Part shown: positions 4,465 through 24,610 of the stretch, piece by piece | Layout: each line of letters starts with the position of its first letter | Numbering within the stretch: the first letter of the stretch is position 1 | Assembly (NCBI GenBank): GCA_937124585.1 | Contig: CAKZKT010000051.1 | Coordinates: 16,398-80,397 of the forward strand | Direction of reading: 5' to 3' | DNA: 64,000 nt | Source: an uncultured Anaerolineae bacterium | Lineage (GTDB): Bacteria > Chloroflexota > Anaerolineae > CG2-30-64-16 | The notes under the pieces: model-generated | The model's database searches: none | What the model saw: the letters and a program-made list of their open reading frames with translations, nothing else | Told to the model about the DNA's origin: nothing | Position numbers and translations under genes: made by a program

Positions 4465-5475
4465 TCAATCGGGCGCGGCCTGCCGGATCCGGGGATCAAT
4501 GAGCGGATAGGCAATGTCAATGATGAAGTTTGCCACCGCTACAGAGAGGATGATCAGGAGCACGCTGCCCTGGATCACCGGATAGTCGAGGCCTTTGATC
4601 GAATTGTAAATCAGCCAGCCGAGGCCCGGATAGCCGAAGATCACCTCGGTGATCAAGGCGCCGCCGACGACGTGGCCCAGCGACAGGGCCAGGCCCGTGG
4701 CCTGAGGCAGCAACGCGTTGCGAAACGCATAGCGCCAGAGAATGCGTCGTTCGGGCAGGCCTTTGGCTTCGGCCAGCAGGATGTAGTCTTCGCCTTTCAA
4801 GGCGCCGATCAGGCTGCGCATGCTGAGGAACCACCAGCCCAGCGATACCAGCACAATGCTGAGTGCGGGCAAAAAGGCGTGGTGGAGCACGTCGGCGATG
4901 AACGGCAGCGTCAGGGCCGGCGTCATGGTCACCGAATAGTTCCCGGACAGGGGGAAGATAGGCCAATGAAAAGCGAACAGAAAGATCAGCAGCAGCGCCA
5001 GGATGTAATAGGGGGTGGCGTACAGGATCAGCGCCAGCGGAACCAGGGCCTGAAGAAACCGCGACCCGCTGCCACGCCAGCCCACCACCGCGCCGGCCAA
5101 AGAGCCGATCACCCAACTCAACAGGGTGGTCACCGTCAAGAGGCCGATCGTCCAGGGAAGCGAATTGCGGAGCAGATCCGCAACCTCCGATGGGAAACTG
5201 GCGATCGAATAGCCCAGGTTGCCCTGCAGGAGTTGGGCCAGAAAGCTGATGTACTGCTCCCACAGGCTCTTGTCCAGGCCAAAGCGGCGGGTGTATTCGG
5301 CGACCAGCTCGGTGGCGTTCATGCTGCCGCCCATCTGCGCCAGGCTGAGAAAGACGGCGCCCAGGGGGTCGCCGGGGACCAGGCGTGGCACGATGAACAC
5401 CACGGTCACAGAGATGACGATGGTGGCAATGAAGAGCGCGAAGCGCTCCGCCAGATATTTCAGGTAAGCCGCCAT
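4465..5475 (-). CDS. ABC transporter permease (OppB/DppB-like)
   Basis: Hydrophobic multi-TM protein with the ILLAEAKGLPERRILWRYAFRNALLP permease signature. Confidence 0.85.
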   Translation of the reverse strand: MAAYLKYLAERFALFIATIVISVTVVFIVPRLVPGDPLGAVFLSLAQMGGSMNATELVAEYTRRFGLDKSLWEQYISFLAQLLQGNLGYSIASFPSEVADLLRNSLPWTIGLLTVTTLLSWVIGSLAGAVVGWRGSGSRFLQALVPLALILYATPYYILALLLIFLFAFHWPIFPLSGNYSVTMTPALTLPFIADVLHHAFLPALSIVLVSLGWWFLSMRSLIGALKGEDYILLAEAKGLPERRILWRYAFRNALLPQATGLALSLGHVVGGALITEVIFGYPGLGWLIYNSIKGLDYPVIQGSVLLIILSVAVANFIIDIAYPLIDPRIRQAAPD

Positions 5476-5560
5476 GAGTCGGTTCCTTCGAGGCAGGAGA
5501 AATGGCCCTGGCTGTGCACGGCCTGCGCACAGCCAGGGCCGGAACGGATCGCAGCAGGCG

Positions 5561-7496
5561 TTACTTCACGCCCGTCGGCTGGAGGCCGCCCACCCACTTG
5601 CCGGTGGTGGGGGACTGATAGCCGGTGATGACCAGGTTAAACGTGGCCCACCAGCTGACCGGCATGTTCCACGGATCCTCGGCCGAGGGGAAGCCCTTCC
5701 AGTAGGTATAGTTGAAGGGCACCAGGGCCGGGGCCTGGACGACCGGCACCACCGGCAGCTGCTCGAACCAGATGGCCATCGCCTTCTTGTACTGCTCCTT
5801 GACCTTCTCGACCTCGGTCGGCGGGGTCTTGCCCATCTCATCTACGATGGCATCGAACTCCGCGTTCTTGAAGCGGAAGGAGTTGCGCTCGTACCAGGGC
5901 GCGGGCTCGCCCAGGGGCACGTAGTTGGCGCCATGGAAGAGCCACAGGTTATCGTAGATGTAGCCGGGGCAGAACGAATGCAGCTTGAGGTCGTACTGCC
6001 CGCGCAGCAGGGCATCGGCCAGCGGGCTGCCGGTCATGGACTGGATCTTGACACCGATGCCGGCGGCGCGCAGCTGATCGGCCAGCACCGCGGACACCTT
6101 CATCTCCTCGCCCGAGTTGCTGTCCACCACATAGATCAGCTCCAGCTTCTTGCCGTCGGCGGTGGTCCAGTCGTTGCCGACCTTCTTGAGGCCGGCGGCC
6201 GCCAGGAGCTCGGCCGCTTTCTTGGTGTCGGTCGCATCGGCAGGATACTTCGCACGCAGGTCCTGGATCGCGTCGAAGTAGGGCTTCAGGCCATCGTAGA
6301 AGGGCCACACGCCCCAGGTCGGGGTGGTCGTTCCCTCATACGCCAGGTTGACGATGGCCTTGCGGTCAATCAGGTAGGAAATCGCCCAGCGCACTTCCTT
6401 TTGATCCAGCGGCGGCTTGGCGTTCTGCACCATCAGCGCCCGCGGGCAGGGATCCAGCCAGGCATAGGGCGGATCTTTGGTCCACGCGCGCAGGTTCGGA
6501 TTGCGCCGCGCGACCTCCTTGAAGGAACCGAGCGAGAGCTTTCCGATGAAGGGGGTATCAATTTCGTTGGCGGCCAGGGCCAGCGCGATGTTCGTGTCGT
6601 CGCCGATGTACTGGAAGTTGATGGTCTTGGGGGCCGGCTTGACGCCGAAGACCTTCGTCCCCCACCAGTCATCGCGTCGCTCATAGACGAACGCGGTCTC
6701 GGTGGCGCGCACGAGCTTGTACGGCCCGGTGCCAACAGGCTGCGAGTTCTTGAAGGTCAGCGGGTCCTGGCCTTCCCAGATGTGCTTCGGCAGGATGGTG
6801 ATGCCGCCCCAGATGCCCACTGCCGGGAATGCCTCGCGGATGAGATGGAAGCGCGGGTTGGGCTTTGTGAGCTCGAACTTGACGGTGGTATCGTCCACTT
6901 TCGTGGCGGCCTTCACCCAGGTGTTCGCCTCGGCCGCCCAGGTCATGCCTGGGTTCTTCTTCAGCAGCTCATAGGTGAAGACGACGTCATCGGCCGTGAA
7001 CGGCTTGCCGTCGCTCCAGGTGACGCCCTTCCGCAGGTTGACGGTGATGCTCGTGAAATCGGCGTTGTACTCGTATTTCTCCGCCAGCCAGGGGATGTAC
7101 TCGCCGGTCTGCAGGTTGTTGTAGAAGAAGTACTCGTAGATGACCTGATGGATGCCGGTTCCAGAGCGGCTGACACCCGGCGCGTAGATGTTCAGGTTGG
7201 TGGGATCGGCCACCCGGCCACCGAGCGCGACGTTGAGGGTCTCCGCGCGCGCCAATCGTTCCGGGCTGATCGGCGCGGGCGTCGGGGTCACGACCTTCTC
7301 GACGATCTTCTCGACCGGCTTTTCGACGACCTTTTCGACGACTTTCTCGACCGGTTTCTCGACGACCTTCTCGACGACCTTCTCGACCGGCTTTTCGACG
7401 ACCTTTCTCGATGACCTGTGGCGTGGGTTGTGCACAGGCCACGAGGACACTCATGATCACGCTCAGAACGAGCACGATCCACAGTTTGGTTTTCAT
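5561..7496 (-). CDS. family-5 (peptide/nickel) substrate-binding lipoprotein with an N-terminal (V/P)VEK tandem-repeat linker; reading frame interrupted by an apparent +1 insertion near 7402
   Basis: A Shine-Dalgarno AAGGAGGAGG precedes ATG 7496, which encodes signal peptide MKTKLWIVLVLSVIMSVLVAC (lipobox LVAC) then AQPTPQVIEK. The (VVEK/PVEK)n repeat and the SBP_bac_5-like body (5561-7450) lie in the +1 frame. Confidence 0.7.
7293..7413 (-). repeat. 12-nt tandem coding repeat (about 10 units, GTCGTCGAGAAG / CCGGTCGAGAAA variants) encoding (V/P)VEK
   Basis: Direct inspection of the sequence. Confidence 0.8.
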
Positions 7497-10134: not shown

Positions 10135-10259
10135 CTGATAGCGCCAAATTTGTATCTACACCAGACCTGCGGTAAAATAGGGACAGCAGGGTGACGATAG
10201 ATCGGCTGGCTGCGTCCGGCGATCTCCTCCCCCCGTGGCCCTGCGTTTCTTCGTCAGTG

Positions 10260-10294
10260 AGGCCCTGCGGATTTCGGGAAAATCCGCAGGGCCT
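10260..10294 (+). other. Perfect 15-bp-stem hairpin (AGGCCCTGCGGATTT-cggga-AAATCCGCAGGGCCT) between tRNA-Pro and comEC
   Basis: The inverted repeat was checked base by base. There is no downstream T-tract. It could be a tRNA transcript terminator or processing element, or a comEC 5'-UTR structure. Confidence 0.5.
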
Positions 10295-10331
10295 GTGTTC
10301 AGCGTTGCGCCCTGGCCAGGGGGCTCTGCGG

Positions 10332-12587
10332 ATGACGCTGGTCTACCTCACGGTTGCCTGGTGTGTGGGCATCTGGCTGGCCCACCAGTTCTGGACGATC
10401 GGTCTGATCGGCTGCGAGACGCCCGGCTGGGCCTTCGCCATAGCGGCGATGTGCTCTGCCGGGCTTGCTATTTTATGGCGCCGGCAGCCATCTCGCCGTT
10501 GGCCCGCTGTCTTCCTGATGTTTGCCCTCCTGGGTGCCTGGCGCTACCAGCTCCGGCCATTTGTCGTCTGTCCCTCGACTACCACATTGGCGGCTTACAA
10601 TGGCTCTGTGGCCGCGCCGACTCGCGCCGTGATCGAGGGCGTCATCGTCGGCTATCCCGATGTGCGCGATACGGCCACGATCTACCATGTGCGCGCTGAT
10701 ACCCTGATCCTTGACGGTCAGGCCCGGCCCGTGCGGGGCGATGTGCGCGTCGAGGCGCCTCGTTATCCGGTTTTGGCCTACGGCGACCGGGTTCGCGCCG
10801 GCGGTCAGCTGATCACGCCGCCTTCCTTCGACGACTTCGACTACGCTGCCTATCTGAGCATCCATGGCATCCACAGTCTGCTGCGCCGCGCGCGCCTCGA
10901 GCGGATCAGCCCGGATCACGGCCATCCGCTGTGGGCGGCCCTGTATCGGCTGCGCGCTCGCGGGGCCGCCCTGCTCAATCGCGTCCTGCCGGAGCCGACG
11001 GCCGCGCTGGCGAACGGGATGCTGCTGGGCATCGAGAGCGGCATCCCCGACGCGGTGGATGAGGCCTTCAAAGTGACCGGTACCACGCATGTCATCGTCA
11101 TCTCCGGCAGCAACATCGCGCTGCTGACGGGCGTTCTCATGGCGCTGCTGGGCCGCGGCCTGGGACGAAGCCGCGCGCTGTTTCTCGTCGCCGCTCTCGT
11201 GATGCTCTATGTCCTGCTGGTCGGCGCCGACCCGCCGGCGCTGCGGGCCGGGATCATGGGCGTGCTATATGTGATTGCCATCGCGCTGGGCCGCGTGAGC
11301 ACTGCCTACGTCTCGCTCTGCGCCTCCGCGTTGGTCATGGCCTTGCTCAACCCGCTGGCATTGTGGGACGTCGGCTTCCAGCTCAGCTTTGCGGCCACCT
11401 TGGGGCTGATCCTGTTCACGGCGCCGCTCCAGGCGCGCTGCGAGCGTTTTTGCACGCGCCGGTTTTCTCCCGAACGTGCCCGCCAGATCACCGCCCTGTT
11501 GAACGACACGCTCATCGTGACCCTGGCCGCGCAGATCCTGACCCTGCCGCTGCTCGTTTACTATTTTGGCCGCCTGTCGCTGGTGGCGTTGCTTGCCAAT
11601 TTCTTGATCCTGCCTGCCCAACCGCCCATCATGGTCGGCGGCATGGCGACTTTGGCCGTGGGCCTGATTTGGGAAACGCTCGGCCGCATCGCGGCCGTGA
11701 TCCCCTGGCTCTTCCTGACCTACACGGTCACAGTGGTGCGCGGCCTGGCGACTGTGCCGCTGGCCGCAGTGGAGACGGGCGCGCTGGGCCGCCTGCTGGC
11801 CGTGCTGTACGGCGTCGGCCTGATCGGAGGACTGGCGTGGCGCCATTGGCCGCTGCTGCGCCGGATGATGCCGGCGCCGTCGGCGGCAGGGCGCTGGCTG
11901 GCGGTGGGGGGCATCTCCGGTTGGCTGATCTTGACCGCGGTCAACCAGATTCCCGATGGCCGCCTGCACATCACGTTCATCGCCGACGCGGCCGGCGAAG
12001 CGGCATTGGTGACCACGCCGACCGGCAGACGCGTCTGGCTGTGGGATGGTCGCGGCGACGGCGCCGTCCTGGCCGCCGCGACGCGCGACCAGTTGCGAAT
12101 CGGCCAGTCGGGGGTCGGCCTGGCATTCGGGCCGGATGCCGGCCGCTATTGGCCGGCTGCGCAAGTTTTCGAGCCGGCGCAGATGCCTGCCGGCAGCCGG
12201 CTGCGCCTCGACGGAGGCGTGGAGCTGACGCGGCTAGCCGCCGGCTCGGCATGGCTGGTGCGCTATGGCCGGTTTCGCACGCTCGCGCCGGCGACGCTCG
12301 CGCCGGAGGCGCAGGCCGAACTGATGCACGGCGCGCCCGCCGATCTCGCGCTCACTTTCCTGAAGGCGCCCGGCGCCGGCACTTCCACCTGGCCGACGAC
12401 CGCCTTCCTCGCCGTGACCGCGCCGCAGATCGTCCTTTGGCCGGAAGCTGCCACCTATCCGCCCGATGTCGCCGAATGGCTGAGTGGCCTGCGCACTGCC
12501 CGTATCCCCGATGAAGGCGTAGTCGAAGTGATTACCGACGGCATGCGGCTGTGGCTGCGCCAGCGCAGCGGCGTGGTGCAGCGATAA
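10332..12587 (+). CDS. comEC: ComEC/Rec2-family DNA internalization channel protein
   Basis: DUF4131-like N-terminus, a Competence domain with TGTTHVIVISGSNIALL, many TM helices, and a C-terminal metallo-beta-lactamase-like fold (HITFIADAAGEAALVTTPTGRRVWLWDG). The start is placed at ATG 10332, after the 10260 hairpin; the ORF-track GTG 10191 extension is rejected. Confidence 0.75.
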   Translation: MTLVYLTVAWCVGIWLAHQFWTIGLIGCETPGWAFAIAAMCSAGLAILWRRQPSRRWPAVFLMFALLGAWRYQLRPFVVCPSTTTLAAYNGSVAAPTRAVIEGVIVGYPDVRDTATIYHVRADTLILDGQARPVRGDVRVEAPRYPVLAYGDRVRAGGQLITPPSFDDFDYAAYLSIHGIHSLLRRARLERISPDHGHPLWAALYRLRARGAALLNRVLPEPTAALANGMLLGIESGIPDAVDEAFKVTGTTHVIVISGSNIALLTGVLMALLGRGLGRSRALFLVAALVMLYVLLVGADPPALRAGIMGVLYVIAIALGRVSTAYVSLCASALVMALLNPLALWDVGFQLSFAATLGLILFTAPLQARCERFCTRRFSPERARQITALLNDTLIVTLAAQILTLPLLVYYFGRLSLVALLANFLILPAQPPIMVGGMATLAVGLIWETLGRIAAVIPWLFLTYTVTVVRGLATVPLAAVETGALGRLLAVLYGVGLIGGLAWRHWPLLRRMMPAPSAAGRWLAVGGISGWLILTAVNQIPDGRLHITFIADAAGEAALVTTPTGRRVWLWDGRGDGAVLAAATRDQLRIGQSGVGLAFGPDAGRYWPAAQVFEPAQMPAGSRLRLDGGVELTRLAAGSAWLVRYGRFRTLAPATLAPEAQAELMHGAPADLALTFLKAPGAGTSTWPTTAFLAVTAPQIVLWPEAATYPPDVAEWLSGLRTARIPDEGVVEVITDGMRLWLRQRSGVVQR

Positions 12588-12613
12588 TGGCTTGCGACTG
12601 GCGTGCAACCGGT

Positions 12614-12665
12614 TTGTGTGGAAGTATGATTATGCACTATAATAAATAGGTCGAGACCAGGTCTC
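12614..12665 (+). promoter_or_regulatory. Near-consensus sigma-70 promoter plus palindromic operator-like site for the RAMP operon
   Basis: TTGTGT (12614-12619), an 18-nt AT-rich spacer, then a perfect TATAAT (12638-12643). The palindrome GAGACCAGGTCTC (12653-12665) sits at the predicted +1 region. The direct repeat GTAAAC(N15)GTAAAC follows, then AGGAGG 7 nt before ATG 12718. Confidence 0.5.
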
Positions 12666-12717
12666 CCTGTAAACTTGCAGAACTCGCGTAAACAGACCTT
12701 TGAGCCAGGAGGAGAAC

Positions 12718-15700
12718 ATGATCATTCGCGGCAAACTGATCGCGGAAACGCCGATCTATCGAGGCAATGCTCGCAAGACACTCTTCACCCGTGACAGCGA
12801 TGGCACCCAGCGGCTGGTCTCGCTTGCGGGTGAGATCTCGGGAACGGCCCAGGCGCTGATGGACGCTTTCATCGGTCAGTCCCGCGATGGTCGGAACATG
12901 GGGCTATTGAATCGCGCCTGGCGCCGGCTCTACGGTGACCCGTTGCCCGATGGCCTGATCACGCGCGTCGAATGTCGGCTCCCGGAAGCAATGTACACGC
13001 AGGATCGCTTTTTCGACCTGCGCATGGGCCTGAAGTTGGACGAGGACCGTTGGGCGGCCGAGGCGAATGCCAACTACAAGATGGAGACCGTCTTCCGCCA
13101 TACCGGTTTCGACTTCAGCATGATGGTCAACGATGCCGTGCTGGAGCGCGGGGAAAACCGGGTCCGGCTCTACGCCCTGCTGGAGGAGATGGCGGCTGGT
13201 CGGTTCTGGTTTGGCGCCGGGAAGAGCAAAGGGCTGGGCCGGCTGCGGCTGGAAGCCGATCTGAGGAGCCTCACGCCCGCCGCGCCCGCTTTCCGTCCCG
13301 AAGTCAACCATTTGAAGATCGTGCTCCGCTTCAACGCCGATAACCCGGTGCTGGTCGGCTGGAATTGGGGCAAGGTAGATCCGGCCGTGCCGGCCTTCGC
13401 TGCCATCGAGGGCCGGTTGCTCATCGCGGCCATGCGCGACATCCCCGATCCGATCCGCCAGCGGCTCGAGCTCGTCATCGGCGGGCCCATCCTCAGCCCG
13501 GAAGACTGGAAACGCCGGCTGGCCGAGTATCTGCCGCGCGCCATCGCGCTCTGGCTTCAGGAGCGATCGAGCAGCCAGTCTGAAGTGTGGATTCTGCACG
13601 AAAACGCGCTGGCCAGGCTGGCCAAAGGCAAATACCCGCTGTCGCAGAAAGCGCTCGACGCGGTCAAGCCGCTCTGCGAGCAGCCATTTCCCGATGCCGC
13701 AGCCGCAGAAGCGGCCCTCAGGGAGCGCATCGGCAACCAGGCCAAACGCGTCCTGGAGATCATGGAACGGCAGCAGCAGGCCGGCCACCAACTTGACATG
13801 GCCGCCTGGCACGAGGTGAGCGATAGCCTGGGCCTGGATGCCACGCCGGTCGAGACGCTGGCGGCGCAGCTGGACGATGAAACGGCCCTCACCCAGACCC
13901 TCGCCGAAGCGTGTCGGCCGGTCATGGCGCGGCTCTATCAGCAGGTAGACCAGCAGGTGGATCTCCTGCGCAGCGACGCCTGGGTGGATGCCGAGATCGC
14001 CAATCGAGAGGTACATCTCAAGATCAAACAGATGCTGCTGGAGGGCAAGATCAGCGAGGCGCAATGGATGAACCGCAATCAGCCGCCCGCAGGGATCAGC
14101 CCGGCGGCCTGGCGCAGTTTCCTGGAAGAACATAGCCGGGTGCGCTATCAGCACATCATCCATCCGGCGAACCTGCGCAAGAGCATCACCAACGACCGCA
14201 ACTTCATCGCCTTCCTGCAGAGCTACCGGGCGAAGGCGCGCCAGGAACTTTCGCAGCCGTACCATGTGGACTTCCGCAGCGGCGGCCCGTTCAATCGCGA
14301 TGTTGCACGCAAATACGGCAAGCCCTACGACACCATGTTCATGCGCATGTTGACCTGGAGCCCGGCCGCGCGCGAGGGCGCGTGGGAGATCTATATCCCC
14401 GGCAGCACCATCAAGGGCGCGTTTCGCAAGCGCGCCTCGCAGGTGCTGAAGACGCTCTGGGGCGAATCGCCGCGCGTGACCGAGATTTTGGATTATCTGT
14501 TCGGCCGCCAGGGACAGCGCGGGGCCATCTACTTCTCCGATGCCTATCTGACCGATCCCACGCAGCCCGAGGAGGTCTGGTGTTCGATGGACGGCGTGCG
14601 CATGGATCCGGCGACGGCTCGCCCTGTGGAGACTGCCAAGCACGATTACCTGTTCGCCTATGGCGATCAGCTTAACTTCCAGCTGCAACTGGAGTTGCAA
14701 GACCTCACCGAGCGCGATCGGCCCGCGCTGGCCGTCCTGATCAACCTGCTGAAAGATTTCCAGCAGGGCGACATCGTCCTGGGCGGCGAGAAGACCGTCG
14801 GGTTCGGCTGGGTGAAGGCCCGCGTCAGCGAGATCACCTGGCTGACGGCCGATCCGGCCAACAAGCTGTTGGCCGATATCCTGCCCGAACGGCCCTTGAC
14901 CCGTGTCGGGCCCTGGCATCAGCTGACGTTGCGCGACGAAGAGGCGGCCGAGGTAATGTGGCGCGCGCCACTGCCCGCGGCCACCCGGGTCGAGGTCCGG
15001 CCGCCACGTGCTCGGGAAGGCTTCATCTCGCACCGGGCCTTCGGCGGCTACTCCGGCATATTGGCCGTGGAGGTCGAAGTGTTGACCCCTCTCCATGTTC
15101 GGGAGAGCGGCGAGCCATCGCGGCGCGCGGTCCTGGCCGATGGCAACGTGAACGGCTGGGACTGCTTCTCGTTCGCGCCGGCCGAGGCTGCTCTGCGGCC
15201 AGATGCCCGGCTCTACGCGCTGCCCAGCCGCAGCCTGAAGGGGTTGCTGCGCCACATCTACGCGGTCGCCAGCGACGCGAAGGGAGAGAGCCCGGCCCTG
15301 GATCGTCTGAACCCGGCCGACAGCCTGTTCGGATGGGTGGGTGCCGGCCCGAACCAGGCCATCATGGGGCGGCTGGCGTTTGGCTTTGCGCCGTTTGACG
15401 AGACGCCGGAGCTGGCCTGGTTCAAAGTGCCCTACCCCTACGGCGGCTGGATCTGCGAGAACGGCGTCTGGCGCCAGAGTACGACCAAAACGGTGCCGAT
15501 GTTCCAGATAGACAAGACCTGGCGGCTCTTCTTCCACGCGCCGCTCGCGCCGATCGTGAAGCGCCTGGAAGATTTCACGCCCGATACCGTGCAGGCCAGC
15601 TATACACGCGCGATCTTGCCGGGCGCAAAGGCGCGCTTCGACATTCGTTTCTGGAATCTGGAACAGGAAGAGCTGCAGCGCCTCATCTGGTGCATCGAGC

Positions 15701-15933
15701 TGGAGGAGGGCCTGGCGCACAAGTTGGGCCATCACCGCTATGTCGGCTTCGGCAGCGTGCGCCTGCGTATCCTGCCCGAGAGCGTGCTGTGGGACTGGAC
15801 GAAGCGCTACACCGATCAGGATGAGGGACGCCTGCCGCTGCGCGTTGCAGAGTGGTTCGAGCCCAAAGTGGTGGCGCACCGCGCGGCGCTGCTGAAGGCG
15901 CTTGATGCGCGCGTGCTGTCCGGCAATCGCTGA
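12718..15933 (+). CDS. Giant multi-RAMP fusion protein: three Cas7-like RAMP domains plus a ~300-aa alpha-helical insert (candidate single-subunit type III-like effector)
   Basis: Domain 1 (aa 1-185): beta1 MIIRGKLIAETPIYRG, glycine-rich loop WFGAGKSKGLGRLRLE (nt ~13210-13254). Domain 2 (aa ~540-715): IPGSTIKGAFRKRASQ (nt ~14394-14441), LFGRQGQRGAIYFSDAYL, glycine-rich loop GGEKTVGFGWVKA (~14785-14823). Domain 3 (aa ~785-1050): ILAVEVEVLTPLHV, LPSRSLKGLLRH (~15222-15257), LFGWVGAGPNQAIMGRLAFGFAPF, glycine-rich loop GHHRYVGFGSVRLRI. The start is ATG 12718 rather than the ORF-track TTG 12700. Confidence 0.85.
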   Translation: MIIRGKLIAETPIYRGNARKTLFTRDSDGTQRLVSLAGEISGTAQALMDAFIGQSRDGRNMGLLNRAWRRLYGDPLPDGLITRVECRLPEAMYTQDRFFDLRMGLKLDEDRWAAEANANYKMETVFRHTGFDFSMMVNDAVLERGENRVRLYALLEEMAAGRFWFGAGKSKGLGRLRLEADLRSLTPAAPAFRPEVNHLKIVLRFNADNPVLVGWNWGKVDPAVPAFAAIEGRLLIAAMRDIPDPIRQRLELVIGGPILSPEDWKRRLAEYLPRAIALWLQERSSSQSEVWILHENALARLAKGKYPLSQKALDAVKPLCEQPFPDAAAAEAALRERIGNQAKRVLEIMERQQQAGHQLDMAAWHEVSDSLGLDATPVETLAAQLDDETALTQTLAEACRPVMARLYQQVDQQVDLLRSDAWVDAEIANREVHLKIKQMLLEGKISEAQWMNRNQPPAGISPAAWRSFLEEHSRVRYQHIIHPANLRKSITNDRNFIAFLQSYRAKARQELSQPYHVDFRSGGPFNRDVARKYGKPYDTMFMRMLTWSPAAREGAWEIYIPGSTIKGAFRKRASQVLKTLWGESPRVTEILDYLFGRQGQRGAIYFSDAYLTDPTQPEEVWCSMDGVRMDPATARPVETAKHDYLFAYGDQLNFQLQLELQDLTERDRPALAVLINLLKDFQQGDIVLGGEKTVGFGWVKARVSEITWLTADPANKLLADILPERPLTRVGPWHQLTLRDEEAAEVMWRAPLPAATRVEVRPPRAREGFISHRAFGGYSGILAVEVEVLTPLHVRESGEPSRRAVLADGNVNGWDCFSFAPAEAALRPDARLYALPSRSLKGLLRHIYAVASDAKGESPALDRLNPADSLFGWVGAGPNQAIMGRLAFGFAPFDETPELAWFKVPYPYGGWICENGVWRQSTTKTVPMFQIDKTWRLFFHAPLAPIVKRLEDFTPDTVQASYTRAILPGAKARFDIRFWNLEQEELQRLIWCIELEEGLAHKLGHHRYVGFGSVRLRILPESVLWDWTKRYTDQDEGRLPLRVAEWFEPKVVAHRAALLKALDARVLSGNR

Positions 15934-15938
15934 CCGGT

Positions 15939-16811
15939 ATGCTGACACATTTCGACTGGCTACGGCGCAGCTGCAGCGGTCCGGAATTGTTGGCGACGCT
16001 CCAATACCTGGAGACCAACCCCGACCTGCCGACGGAAGACAGCGAGATGGGACCCCCGCCTTCGGCCGGGACGGCACCGTGCGCGCGCTGCTGGATCTAT
16101 CCGCGCGCGGTGGGACGCTATTGTGTCACCTGTCACGCCATCCTCGATCGTGCCTGGCGCCTGCGTGATGTCATCCCCCGGACGATCGTGATCTGGGGCT
16201 TCGTCAATCGCGTGCCCAAGGCCCGGCCGGGCCGCCAGAGCTTTGCCGGCAGCAACATCCTGGGGCAATACGTTCACGACGAGCGGCGTTTTCTGCTGAT
16301 GTTGCCGCACGACGAACTGAAGTCCTGGTTGCACGACCTGGCGCTCTACTACGGGATCGAGTTGAAGGGGCTTTTGCAGATCTTTCCGACCACGGGCGGC
16401 CGGGCGGCCCACATGGGCGACCTGCTGGTGCGCATGGTTCACCATGAAGCGCGCTTCCCGCCCGACAAGCTGCGCATTCGCTTCTTCGCCAAACTGGACC
16501 AGGTCTTCCATCCGCGACCGTACGAAAAGGAGGGCGTCCTGACCTTCGAGGCGGCCGAATTCCTGCGCACCCTGGAGCTGGCGACCGTCTTCCGCACTCT
16601 GCTGCGGCCGGATGAGCAGAAAACTCTTTACAAGCTGCTGCACATGACCGACTCCGCGCAGTCGCAGCTCTATTGGGGCCGCTTTTGGGGCCTGCTCAGC
16701 CAGGAGGCGCGCGATCTGATCAATGCCTGGGGCATCCGAACCTGGACGGAGTATCAGATCAGCCTGCTGTACGAGTTAGTGGACTATGTTGCCTTTGATC
16801 AGCCAGGTTAA
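15939..16811 (+). CDS. Hypothetical protein with an N-terminal CxxC...CxxC zinc-ribbon, translationally coupled to the RAMP gene
   Basis: CARCWIYPRAVGRYCVTCH. The ATG lies 5 nt after the upstream stop. No recognisable catalytic motifs. Confidence 0.6.
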   Translation: MLTHFDWLRRSCSGPELLATLQYLETNPDLPTEDSEMGPPPSAGTAPCARCWIYPRAVGRYCVTCHAILDRAWRLRDVIPRTIVIWGFVNRVPKARPGRQSFAGSNILGQYVHDERRFLLMLPHDELKSWLHDLALYYGIELKGLLQIFPTTGGRAAHMGDLLVRMVHHEARFPPDKLRIRFFAKLDQVFHPRPYEKEGVLTFEAAEFLRTLELATVFRTLLRPDEQKTLYKLLHMTDSAQSQLYWGRFWGLLSQEARDLINAWGIRTWTEYQISLLYELVDYVAFDQPG

Positions 16812-17826
16812 TCTGATCCGCTACCTGATCGTCTGGCGGGTGAACAGTTCGCTGGTGCACTTGTCGCGCTGTCTCGCCACCGATGTCTCGCGCACGCTCG
16901 CCATGTTGATCGCTGAGCGTCTGCCGACGCAGCAGGCGCGGCCGTGGCGCAAGACGGTGCAGCTTTGGAACAGCATCGCGGGCGATGCGGGCGCAGCCGA
17001 CGACGGCGAGGCGCAGGCGTCACCGAAACAACCGGCCTCTCAGGCGCCGGCCGATGAAGAGGCATTCTGGCCGGCCTGGCCGATCGAAGCAGTCGTGTGG
17101 CCATATCCCGGCAAGCGCATCTATGGCCAGGGCGAACCGCTCATATGGGAGCTGAAGCTGCTCGGCAACGACGCCGACCACGGCCTGTTTTTGGAGGTGC
17201 TGTTGCCGGCGATGGAAGCGGCGGCTGTCACCTCCGACGAGCGGTGGCATCGGTCGCGCACGTTGTGGGGGCGGTTCGACATTGACAGCATCTACGTCAG
17301 CCGCGGGCCGCGCTGGGAGCCGATTGCGCGCGGCGGTCGGCTCGACCTGAGCTGCCGCGTGACGCCCGTGCAGTGGGCCGAGGGGTTCGGCGAAGAGAGG
17401 CAGGAAAAGCCCCTACGGCGTCGCCTCATCTGGCTCACTCCGTTCGACCTGCCGGTGCTCGCGACGGCCGCCGACGCTCAGGACGCGACACGGCCGGCGC
17501 GACCGGCCGTGCCGGCGCTGGCCGACATCCTGGAGGCGCTGATGGAGCGGGTGGCCGGCCTGGCGGCGGGCAAACGCGCCCGCGCCGAACAGGCCTGGGC
17601 GCTCCTCTCGGCCGAAGAGCGGGCCGCCTTGCAGGAGGCTTGCGCAGCGGGCCCAGTGGTGAGGGCAGAATTGCAACGCGCCGATTGGGCCTGGCCCGGC
17701 CGCTGGATCGGCGAGCAGACCTTCCGCCAGATCGCGGCCGTCCTGTGGCCCTATTTGGATCTGGCCTCTATCGTGCACATCGGCCGCCACACCCATTTCG
17801 GCTGTGGCGCTTTCACGTTGGTCTAG
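16786..17826 (+). CDS. Cas6-like RAMP protein (putative endoribonuclease) with a C-terminal glycine-rich loop
   Basis: C-terminal ...VHIGRHTHFGCGAFTLV (nt ~17773-17823) fits the Cas6 G-phi-G-R-x-T-S-x-G-phi-G loop. N-terminal beta-alpha pattern IRYLIVWRVNSSLVHLSRCLATDVSRTLAMLIAERL. Overlaps the upstream gene by 26 nt. Confidence 0.6.
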   Translation: MLPLISQVNLIRYLIVWRVNSSLVHLSRCLATDVSRTLAMLIAERLPTQQARPWRKTVQLWNSIAGDAGAADDGEAQASPKQPASQAPADEEAFWPAWPIEAVVWPYPGKRIYGQGEPLIWELKLLGNDADHGLFLEVLLPAMEAAAVTSDERWHRSRTLWGRFDIDSIYVSRGPRWEPIARGGRLDLSCRVTPVQWAEGFGEERQEKPLRRRLIWLTPFDLPVLATAADAQDATRPARPAVPALADILEALMERVAGLAAGKRARAEQAWALLSAEERAALQEACAAGPVVRAELQRADWAWPGRWIGEQTFRQIAAVLWPYLDLASIVHIGRHTHFGCGAFTLV

Positions 17827-19067
17827 CGTCGCGCGGCGATCACCTGCTTCAGCAGCTCGCCCAGCCGGCGGATTCCCTCCTCGATCTGGGCGGGCCGGGC
17901 GTTGGAGAAGTTCAGCCGCATGGTGTTGCGGCCCCGGCCGGGCTCGGTATAAAACGCGAATCCCGGCACGTAGGCCACTTTGTGTTTCACGGCCTCTTTG
18001 AGCAGCTCCGCGGTGTCAATCCACTCCGGGACGCGTGTCCACAGGAATAATCCGCCCTCCGGACGCGTCCACGAGCAGCCCTCCGGAAAGTAGCGCTCCA
18101 GCGCGGCCAGCATCACGTTGCGGCGTTCGCCGTAGACGCGGCGAATCACCCGGATGTGTTCGTCCATGAAGCCGTCTTTGACCATCTCCCACGCCAGCAT
18201 CTGGTTGAAGGTGCTCGTGTGCAGGTCTACGCCCTGCTTGGCCATCACCAGCTGCTCCACGACCTCCACCGGCGCGACGACCCAGCCCAGGCGCAAGCCG
18301 GGCGCCAGGGTCTTGGAAAAGGTGCCCAGGTAGATAACGTTGCCCTCCATGTAGCCGTGGCTCTCCAGCCCGGCGCGCGTCTGAAAATCGCTGTCGAGCG
18401 CCACCAGGGGCGGCAAATGCTCCCCTTCGAAGCGCAGCGCGCCGTAGGGATCATCTTCGACGATGGGGATGCCGTATTTGTGGGACAGGCGTACGATCTC
18501 CAGCCGGCGTTCGATGGGCAGGGTCGTGCCGCCCGGGTTCTGGAAGTTCGGCAGGACGTACATGAACTTCGGGCCATGGCGCAGCGTTGCTTCCAGAAGC
18601 TCGACGCGCAGGCCGTCATCATCACCCGGCACGGGCAGATACTCCGCTTGATACGCGTTCCAGGCCTGGAGCGCGCCCAGGTAGGTCGGCTCCTCGACCA
18701 GCACGCGGTCGCCCGGGTTCAACAGCAACTTGCCGATCAGGTCGAGGGCTTGCTGAGAGCCGTTGGTGATCAGCACGTTTTCCGCTTTGGCGTGGATGCC
18801 GTAGCGACACATGCGCTGGACGATGTACTCTCGCAGCGGCACATATCCTTCGGTCGGCCCGTATTGCAGGGCGTGCACGCCGTTTGTGGTGAGGATGCGC
18901 GCGGCTGCCTCGCGGGCTCGTTCGATGGGAAACAGTTCGGGCGCCGGCAGTCCGCCGGCAAAGGAGATGAGGTCTGGCTGCTCGGTGTATTTCAGCAGCT
19001 CGCGAATCACCGAGCGCCCCATGCGCTGCAGGCGCTGGGCATAACGGTTTTTCCAGAGAGTGGTCAC
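17823..19067 (-). CDS. PLP-dependent aminotransferase (class I/II, 2-aminoadipate/LysN-like)
   Basis: SVIRELL...ISFAGGLP...LITNGSQQALDL...YLGTFSKTLAPGLRLGW carries the fold-type-I Lys motif. The GTG start at ~19067 follows an AAGGA RBS; the ORF-track extension is rejected. Confidence 0.8.
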   Translation of the reverse strand: MTTLWKNRYAQRLQRMGRSVIRELLKYTEQPDLISFAGGLPAPELFPIERAREAAARILTTNGVHALQYGPTEGYVPLREYIVQRMCRYGIHAKAENVLITNGSQQALDLIGKLLLNPGDRVLVEEPTYLGALQAWNAYQAEYLPVPGDDDGLRVELLEATLRHGPKFMYVLPNFQNPGGTTLPIERRLEIVRLSHKYGIPIVEDDPYGALRFEGEHLPPLVALDSDFQTRAGLESHGYMEGNVIYLGTFSKTLAPGLRLGWVVAPVEVVEQLVMAKQGVDLHTSTFNQMLAWEMVKDGFMDEHIRVIRRVYGERRNVMLAALERYFPEGCSWTRPEGGLFLWTRVPEWIDTAELLKEAVKHKVAYVPGFAFYTEPGRGRNTMRLNFSNARPAQIEEGIRRLGELLKQVIAARR

Positions 19068-19166
19068 GGTTGTTGCAATCCTTTGTTCTGGGCGGTGCAC
19101 ACACGTCGCGACGCCGTAGAACGAGATTGATCTCGTCCTGCGGCCGACGCTCTTCAAGCCGGATGT

Positions 19167-24464: not shown

Positions 24465-24601
24465 GTCGCCCACGTGCCAGGCACTCGGCAAGATGCCTGG
24501 CACGGGAGTGGTCGCCACGTGCCAGGCACTCGGCAAGATGCCTGGCACGGGAGTGGTCGCCCACGTGCCAGGCACTCGGCAAGATGCCTGGCACGGGAGT
24601 C
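24465..24601. repeat. 3x tandem ~46-nt palindromic unit (GTCGCCCACGTGCCAGGCACTCGGCAAGATGCCTGGCACGGGAGTG) immediately 3' of rex
   Basis: Units at 24465-24510, 24511-24555 and 24556-24601. Each holds the 10-bp inverted repeat GTGCCAGGCA/TGCCTGGCAC. There are no unique spacers. Confidence 0.85.
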
Positions 24602-24610
24602 CGGCGATTT

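Follow-up and report, generated by a model that had tools for sequence, protein, structure and literature searches.

Introduction

From where does a type III effector that adjoins no array of clustered regularly interspaced short palindromic repeats (CRISPR), and that would lack cyclic-oligoadenylate signalling, obtain its guide RNAs? The question is posed by a three-gene module, cas7-11i, cas10i and cas6i, in a 64-kb stretch of DNA (the window) from an uncultured Anaerolineae bacterium, the window being part of contig C51 of a draft genome of 4.83 Mb (164 contigs, 99.8% complete). An earlier note on the window had placed a RAMP-based module at 12588-17826, between comEC and an aminotransferase gene, and had seen in it an orphan, a type III-like effector with a Cas6-like RNase and no array nearby. 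A Pfam search, in which the module shows a RAMP and a CRISPR_Cas6 domain and nothing else, bears out the placement and the RAMP character, and the pairing of effector and RNase without a nearby array also stands. It is, however, no new orphan: the module belongs to a published subtype, III-I, and brings its own Cas10i.

Subtype III-I was described by Makarova et al. (2025, Nat Microbiol, PMC12669027), with D. magnum Cas7-11i (WP_207677910) and Cas10i (WP_207677911) as references, and is known from more than 160 genomes, mostly of Thermodesulfobacteriota and Chloroflexota. That classification paper is the only one found in the literature on Cas7-11i, Cas10i and type III-I, other mentions of "Cas10i" belonging to unrelated genome-annotation papers; III-I arrays are not described in its supplement, and what is known of the subtype so far comes only from sequences and structural models. 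The present locus and its 80 relatives sharpen three questions: how guides are supplied to an array-less effector of this kind, whether a module-encoded Cas6 processes the repeats of other systems' arrays, and whether a Palm-less Cas10 is still needed. To the published picture we add that III-I loci lack arrays in cis and recurring accessory genes, that the subtype shows no link to cas1, and that in a few incomplete genomes III-I is all of CRISPR-Cas that was detected. We consider it probable that III-I is a working effector that cleaves RNA under RNA guidance, sends no cyclic-oligoadenylate signal, and draws its guides from arrays elsewhere in the genome.

Identity of the Module

The three genes are co-directional, and all are matched near full length by curated subtype III-I models of NCBIfam in a profile search. 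Judged by these matches, positions 12700-17826 almost certainly hold a complete three-gene subtype III-I effector module. It adds a further example to a subtype that is already published, though of recent description and seldom studied, and is no categorically new system. The 112 bp that separate comEC from cas7-11i (12588..12699, + strand) presumably serve as the operon promoter and 5' untranslated region, and they contain no repeats, array or noncoding RNA.

The first gene, cas7-11i (12700..15933, +), starts with TTG and encodes a gRAMP effector of 1077 residues, not of 1071 as first read. Its match to NCBIfam NF049957 (Cas_III-I_gRAMP) reaches 1764.6 bits over residues 7-1071, against a cutoff of 800; Pfam RAMPs is matched at 6.3e-21, and sequence matches in the PDB are to Cas7-11/RAMP proteins (8d9f, 7zol). 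Across 80 homologs many aspartates are invariant (e.g., D32/D34, D426/D430, D614 and D649, numbered on the whole chain). Makarova and co-workers describe Cas7-11i as three Cas7 domains and one Cas11 domain in a single chain (PMC12669027). The earlier statement that a small-subunit gene is missing therefore holds for a separate cas11 gene and not for the Cas11 domain, which by that account lies within Cas7-11i. In one relative (G001, C13:26004-29202) Cas7-11i is split into two open reading frames at about C13:27010, by a frameshift or an assembly error.

The second gene, cas10i (15939..16811, +; 290 residues), had gone unrecognized, the earlier reading being that no Cas10 was present. NCBIfam NF049958 (Cas10_III-i) matches its product with 404 bits. 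No sequence homologs of known structure were found for Cas10i or Cas6i, and structure prediction was for this reason used for both. The AlphaFold2 model of Cas10i, computed from an alignment of 30 sequences, is of high confidence (predicted local distance difference test, pLDDT, 85.6; predicted template modelling score, pTM, 0.83), and its top 50 Foldseek matches are all Cas10, Csm1, Cmr2 or Cas10d chains; as modelled, Cas10i has the Cas10 fold. When 75 homologs are compared, GGDD and HD motifs are absent and a four-cysteine zinc ribbon, CxxC...CxxC (C48/C51/C62/C65), is invariant. By sequence, then, the Palm/cyclase and HD domains have been lost, and the classification paper likewise describes Cas10i as a very diverged Cas10 without the polymerase/cyclase domain; its AlphaFold3 model of the Cas7-11i-Cas10i pair has an interface pTM (ipTM) of 0.75 (PMC12669027).

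The third gene, cas6i (16786..17826, +; 346 residues), which shares its first 26 bp with the end of cas10i, is predicted to encode an endoribonuclease acting on precursor CRISPR RNA (pre-crRNA). It matches NCBIfam NF049959 (CRISPR_3_Cas6i) with 278 bits and Pfam CRISPR_Cas6 at 1.4e-6. The best Foldseek match of its AlphaFold2 model (pLDDT 84.7) is the Cas6 domain of a fusion of Cas6, reverse transcriptase (RT) and Cas1, Cas6-RT-Cas1 (7kft, E 4.6e-8), and Cas6 enzymes of Thermus, Pyrococcus and Streptococcus are found among the other top matches, which range from E 5e-8 to 3e-4. The model places Cas6i in the Cas6 fold; a C-terminal glycine-rich loop (G333/G339/G341) is retained, and H132, H331, H337, K110 and Y13 are invariant.

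Relation to Known Type III Systems

Nothing contradicts membership in subtype III-I: the gene set of Cas7-11i, Palm-less Cas10i and Cas6 is the same, the subtype models match at full length, and the distribution in Chloroflexota and Desulfobacterota agrees. Type III-E (Cas7-11e/gRAMP with the Csx29 protease, "Craspase") resembles III-I in having a single large protein, fused from Cas7 domains and a Cas11 domain, as its crRNA-binding and predicted RNA-cleaving component, and Cas7-11i has PDB sequence matches to Cas7-11 structures (7zol, 7y8x-family, 8d9x). On the other hand, Cas7-11i scores 62.5 bits with the NCBIfam III-E model against a cutoff of 700, and it is without the N-terminal Cas7.1 domain and insertion (PMC12669027). 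III-I has a Cas10i subunit whereas III-E is without Cas10, and no Csx29 (TPR-CHAT) or Csx30 partner is present in the window or recurs at 80 III-I loci. Given the score, the presence of Cas10i and the lack of TPR-CHAT, III-E membership is rejected. As a compact, single-chain effector predicted to target RNA and not to signal, III-I could also, in the manner of Cas7-11e, be a candidate tool for RNA knockdown.

The classification paper traces subtype III-I to a III-D variant (PMC12669027), and a III-D-like locus is found in the same genome. Type III-D (Cas10d, Csx10, Cas7 arrays) differs in its separate Cas7 subunits, its Csx10 and its active Cas10d, where III-I has fused Cas7s and a Palm-less Cas10 remnant. 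Canonical type III-A/B (Csm/Cmr) membership is likewise rejected, with Cas10i lacking GGDD and HD and the Cas7s fused in one protein.

Absence of Arrays at III-I Loci

As the earlier note had it, a search for spaced direct repeats finds no CRISPR array in the window, there is no cas1 or cas2 (the genome's only copies are on contig C122), and no CARF, TPR-CHAT or other Cas protein occurs among the remaining window genes. The note had further proposed a survey of orthologous loci for arrays and accessory genes. With one genome taken per GTDB species, a scan yielded 80 III-I loci from 80 species, mostly Anaerolineae/Chloroflexota but including Desulfobacterota, Gemmatimonadota, Poribacteria, Pseudomonadota and Calditrichota. 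The order cas7-11i, cas10i, cas6i is kept in 80/80 loci, cas6i being missing only at contig ends.

A CRISPR array was found near none of the 80 loci in the flanking sequence retrieved, which extended to at most ~10 kb on each side. Array-like matches at two loci (L074 and L101) were rejected, as they come from low-complexity repeats in coding sequence and from a gene with leucine-rich repeats, and no CRISPR-like repeat was seen at contig ends lying ≤1 kb from III-I loci (35 of 160 ends). Nor does any accessory gene recur: no flank family is shared by more than 8 loci, and those found in 5-8 are housekeeping families (response regulator-GGDEF, RtcA, ribosomal L9, RodZ). A self-contained CRISPR-Cas locus can thus be rejected, as neither the window nor the 80 flanks hold an array and cas1 and cas2 lie only on C122.

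For comparison, the type III-A Cas10 loci of relatives have an array within ~10 kb in 1 of 5 informative cases (among these controls, an array match in G017 had the look of low-complexity repeats rich in G and C and was rejected). Together with the III-A Cas10 of the source genome, which sits ~29 kb from its array, these controls indicate that type III loci here commonly lie far from an array. That not one of 80 III-I loci has an array nearby is nonetheless a systematic pattern, which marks the subtype as a whole and is no local oddity.

One of the flank families merits a remark. The gene for RtcA, an RNA 3'-terminal phosphate cyclase, stands upstream of III-I in 6 of the 80 loci (e.g., L045 1458-2513). 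This is likely a context shared within one clade; it is of note in that the RNA ends produced by cleavage of the Cas7 type carry a 2',3'-cyclic phosphate.

CRISPR Components Elsewhere in the Genome

The genome itself is no orphan, for it holds two array fragments of one repeat family, an adaptation module, and III-A and III-D-like loci. At the start of C122 lies an array of four copies of a 37-bp repeat, adjoining a cas1–cas2–RT adaptation module (cas2, C122:2897-3112; cas1, C122:4086-4949; a group-II-intron-like RT, TIGR04416 with 282 bits, at C122 ~5060-6025 in L009 coordinates, - strand). Beside cas1, cas2 and the array, the RT makes this an RT-associated adaptation module, perhaps with a split RT-Cas1; such modules are typical of type III. 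The same contig carries the type III-A locus, with Csm5, Csm4, Csm3, Cas10/Csm1 (637 bits), a Csx14-like protein and a Cas6 (C122:18900-19247). The III-D-like locus, on C27 (L011), comprises Csx10, a multi-RAMP Csx7-like Cas7 and a TIGR03986 RAMP of 784 residues, and there is no array on that contig. A second array stands at the start of C123 (L012 1-259). Its variant repeat has the first 24 nt in common with the C122 repeat, and no cas genes lie nearby, the neighbors being a DUF11 surface protein and methylmalonyl-CoA mutase. A more sensitive rescan of the genome gave no further CRISPR-like array, other matches being REP-like (repetitive extragenic palindromic) clusters or coding repeats.

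The earlier note had held that an array with repeats cleavable by the Cas6-like protein, together with cas10 or adaptation genes, elsewhere on the same replicon would make this a conventional split type III locus. Arrays, adaptation genes and a III-A locus with its own Cas6 do exist, on C122 and C123 of this 164-contig draft, and may lie on one replicon with III-I. If both arrays are transcribed from the reverse strand, the two repeat types would give one common 8-nt 5' handle, ACUGAAAC, which differs little from AUUGAAAC, the canonical handle of type III.

Guide Supply and Mode of Action

In the mechanism that we favor, the single Cas7-11i chain, with its three Cas7 domains and Cas11 domain, would bind a crRNA, and Cas10i, its Palm/cyclase and HD domains gone, would cap the compact complex. 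Mature crRNAs would be released from their precursors by Cas6i; the guides would come from arrays elsewhere, most plausibly those of the C122/C123 repeat family, which would also serve the III-A and III-D-like systems. The loaded complex would then cleave complementary RNA via conserved aspartates that probably lie in its Cas7 domains. Since the Palm domain is lost, no cyclic-oligoadenylate signal is expected; an HD DNase is lacking as well, and the outcome would be direct RNA-knockdown defense and not a signalling one.

We infer the borrowed guides, the RNA cleavage and the lack of signalling from the evidence above. With no array or adaptation genes of their own at the present locus or in the 80 related species, III-I modules most likely borrow their guides; guide sharing in trans is common for type III. 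Among the three explanations that the earlier note had offered, an array elsewhere acting in trans is hence the best supported. A parallel is offered by the Cmr and Csm modules of Sulfolobus and Thermus, which, as generally known and as treated in PMC12669027, have no array or adaptation genes of their own and presumably receive crRNAs in trans; the III-A Cas10 loci of relatives are also often far from arrays. The likeness has its limits: III-I has its own conserved Cas6i, which most array-borrowing modules do not, and its effector is a single fused Cas7 protein with a Palm-less Cas10.

Several points weigh against this account. In a co-occurrence sample of 301 genomes of the class, III-I is present in 31 (~10%), and cas1 accompanies it in 23 of these 31, as against 174 of the 270 others (Fisher odds ratio 1.59, p=0.32), so that no link is seen. 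Among the eight III-I genomes without cas1, some have other type III modules (G016, G051, G143 and G162), and the variant repeat of C123 recurs in an array of G016. In three others, G009 (93% complete), G113 (94%) and G121 (85%), neither another type III RAMP system nor Cas1 was found, and the only Cas6 of G009 is Cas6i. If III-I needs other arrays, then these genomes must keep orphan arrays or their III-I must be idle. A simple borrowing model also leaves the conserved Cas6i of an array-less module unexplained. Finally, array-derived crRNA in III-I complexes and cleavage of the C122/C123 repeats by Cas6i are predictions, and the 8-nt 5' handle depends on a transcribed array strand that is itself deduced.

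These points lend some weight to the idea that III-I loads guides of non-CRISPR origin, for example pieces that Cas6i cuts from host or phage transcripts. Array independence would explain at once the lack of an adjoining array at all 80 loci, the failure of III-I to track cas1, and its occurrence alone in genomes without cas1 or another type III system, and a Cas6i that is conserved where no array adjoins must have something to act on. If true, it would constitute a new route to guide RNA in class 1 systems. We nevertheless regard it as unlikely. Those closely examined III-I genomes that have another system, namely the source genome and G016, all have arrays; the lone-III-I genomes are incomplete metagenome-assembled genomes, and arrays often fail to assemble; and Cas6 enzymes are known to be repeat-specific.

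A second alternative, which we rate as no better, is that III-I has been co-opted for a non-defense job, for example host RNA regulation via host-matching spacers or endogenous RNAs. A long-resident, fixed operon with no recurring accessory defense genes and a Cas10i whose signalling domain is lost would suit such a role, yet plain RNA-knockdown defense accounts for the same losses, and no host target has been identified. Moreover, aspartates of catalytic type, presumably in the Cas7 domains, and Cas6 active-site features are conserved across the 80 species. Those residues, with the predicted Cas6 fold, speak for crRNA-guided function of the ordinary kind, and the exapted RAMP system with a new function that the earlier note had entertained is not supported.

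It is also improbable, and if anything slightly more so, that what Cas6i processes in each genome is an orphan array specific to III-I, located elsewhere, and not the arrays of other systems. The candidate here would be the C123 array, with its variant repeat and no adjoining cas genes, and the array of that same variant repeat in G016, which has III-I and lacks cas1, would fit. The C122/C123 repeat family is, however, found in relatives with and without III-I (the latter being G015, G017, G022 and G023), and as such it cannot be tied to III-I. That III-I might be a decaying, non-functional remnant, as the want of an array or adaptation genes in cis and the lost enzymatic domains of Cas10i could suggest, is very improbable in view of the constant order of the three genes and their unbroken reading frames in 80 species of several phyla, the invariant residues across 75-80 homologs, the well-folded models of Cas10i and Cas6i, and a presence in about a tenth of the class sample.

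Residence of the Locus and Other Features of the Window

Upstream of the module lies comEC (10191-12587, +; Pfam Competence, 1.2e-52), and downstream the gene for a pyridoxal phosphate-dependent aminotransferase (17823-19157, -). Cas7-11i is found in 12 of 41 related genomes, both same-genus relatives included, and in related genomes the module occupies the same site, with the comEC or the aminotransferase flank conserved. The GC content of the operon (0.63-0.69) is the same as that of its flanks and of the genome (0.648), just as previously remarked. Site and composition together argue against recent import, in support of the earlier view of a long-resident operon.

The palindromic units without spacers that the earlier note had described as the only tandem repeat are indeed palindromic, and are not the sole repeat: the tandem repeats of the window are three 45-bp palindromic units at 24470-24605 and a 12-bp coding repeat at 7288-7418. 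The latter is a low-complexity repeat with a 12-bp period within the open reading frame 5474-7414 (+). The 45-bp unit (CCACGTGCCAGGCAC...) belongs to a genome-wide REP-like family present on many contigs, and a second widespread family has the form GCGGCAATCCAAA/TTTGGATTGCCGC; neither family is a CRISPR array.

The locus was further found, at ~99% identity, in one DNA dataset, a 2017 hot-spring metagenome, where Logan contigs span it without joints or rearrangement. No RNA dataset is among those holding the locus, which says nothing on expression. The hot-spring source suggests that the host is a thermophilic member of the Chloroflexota.

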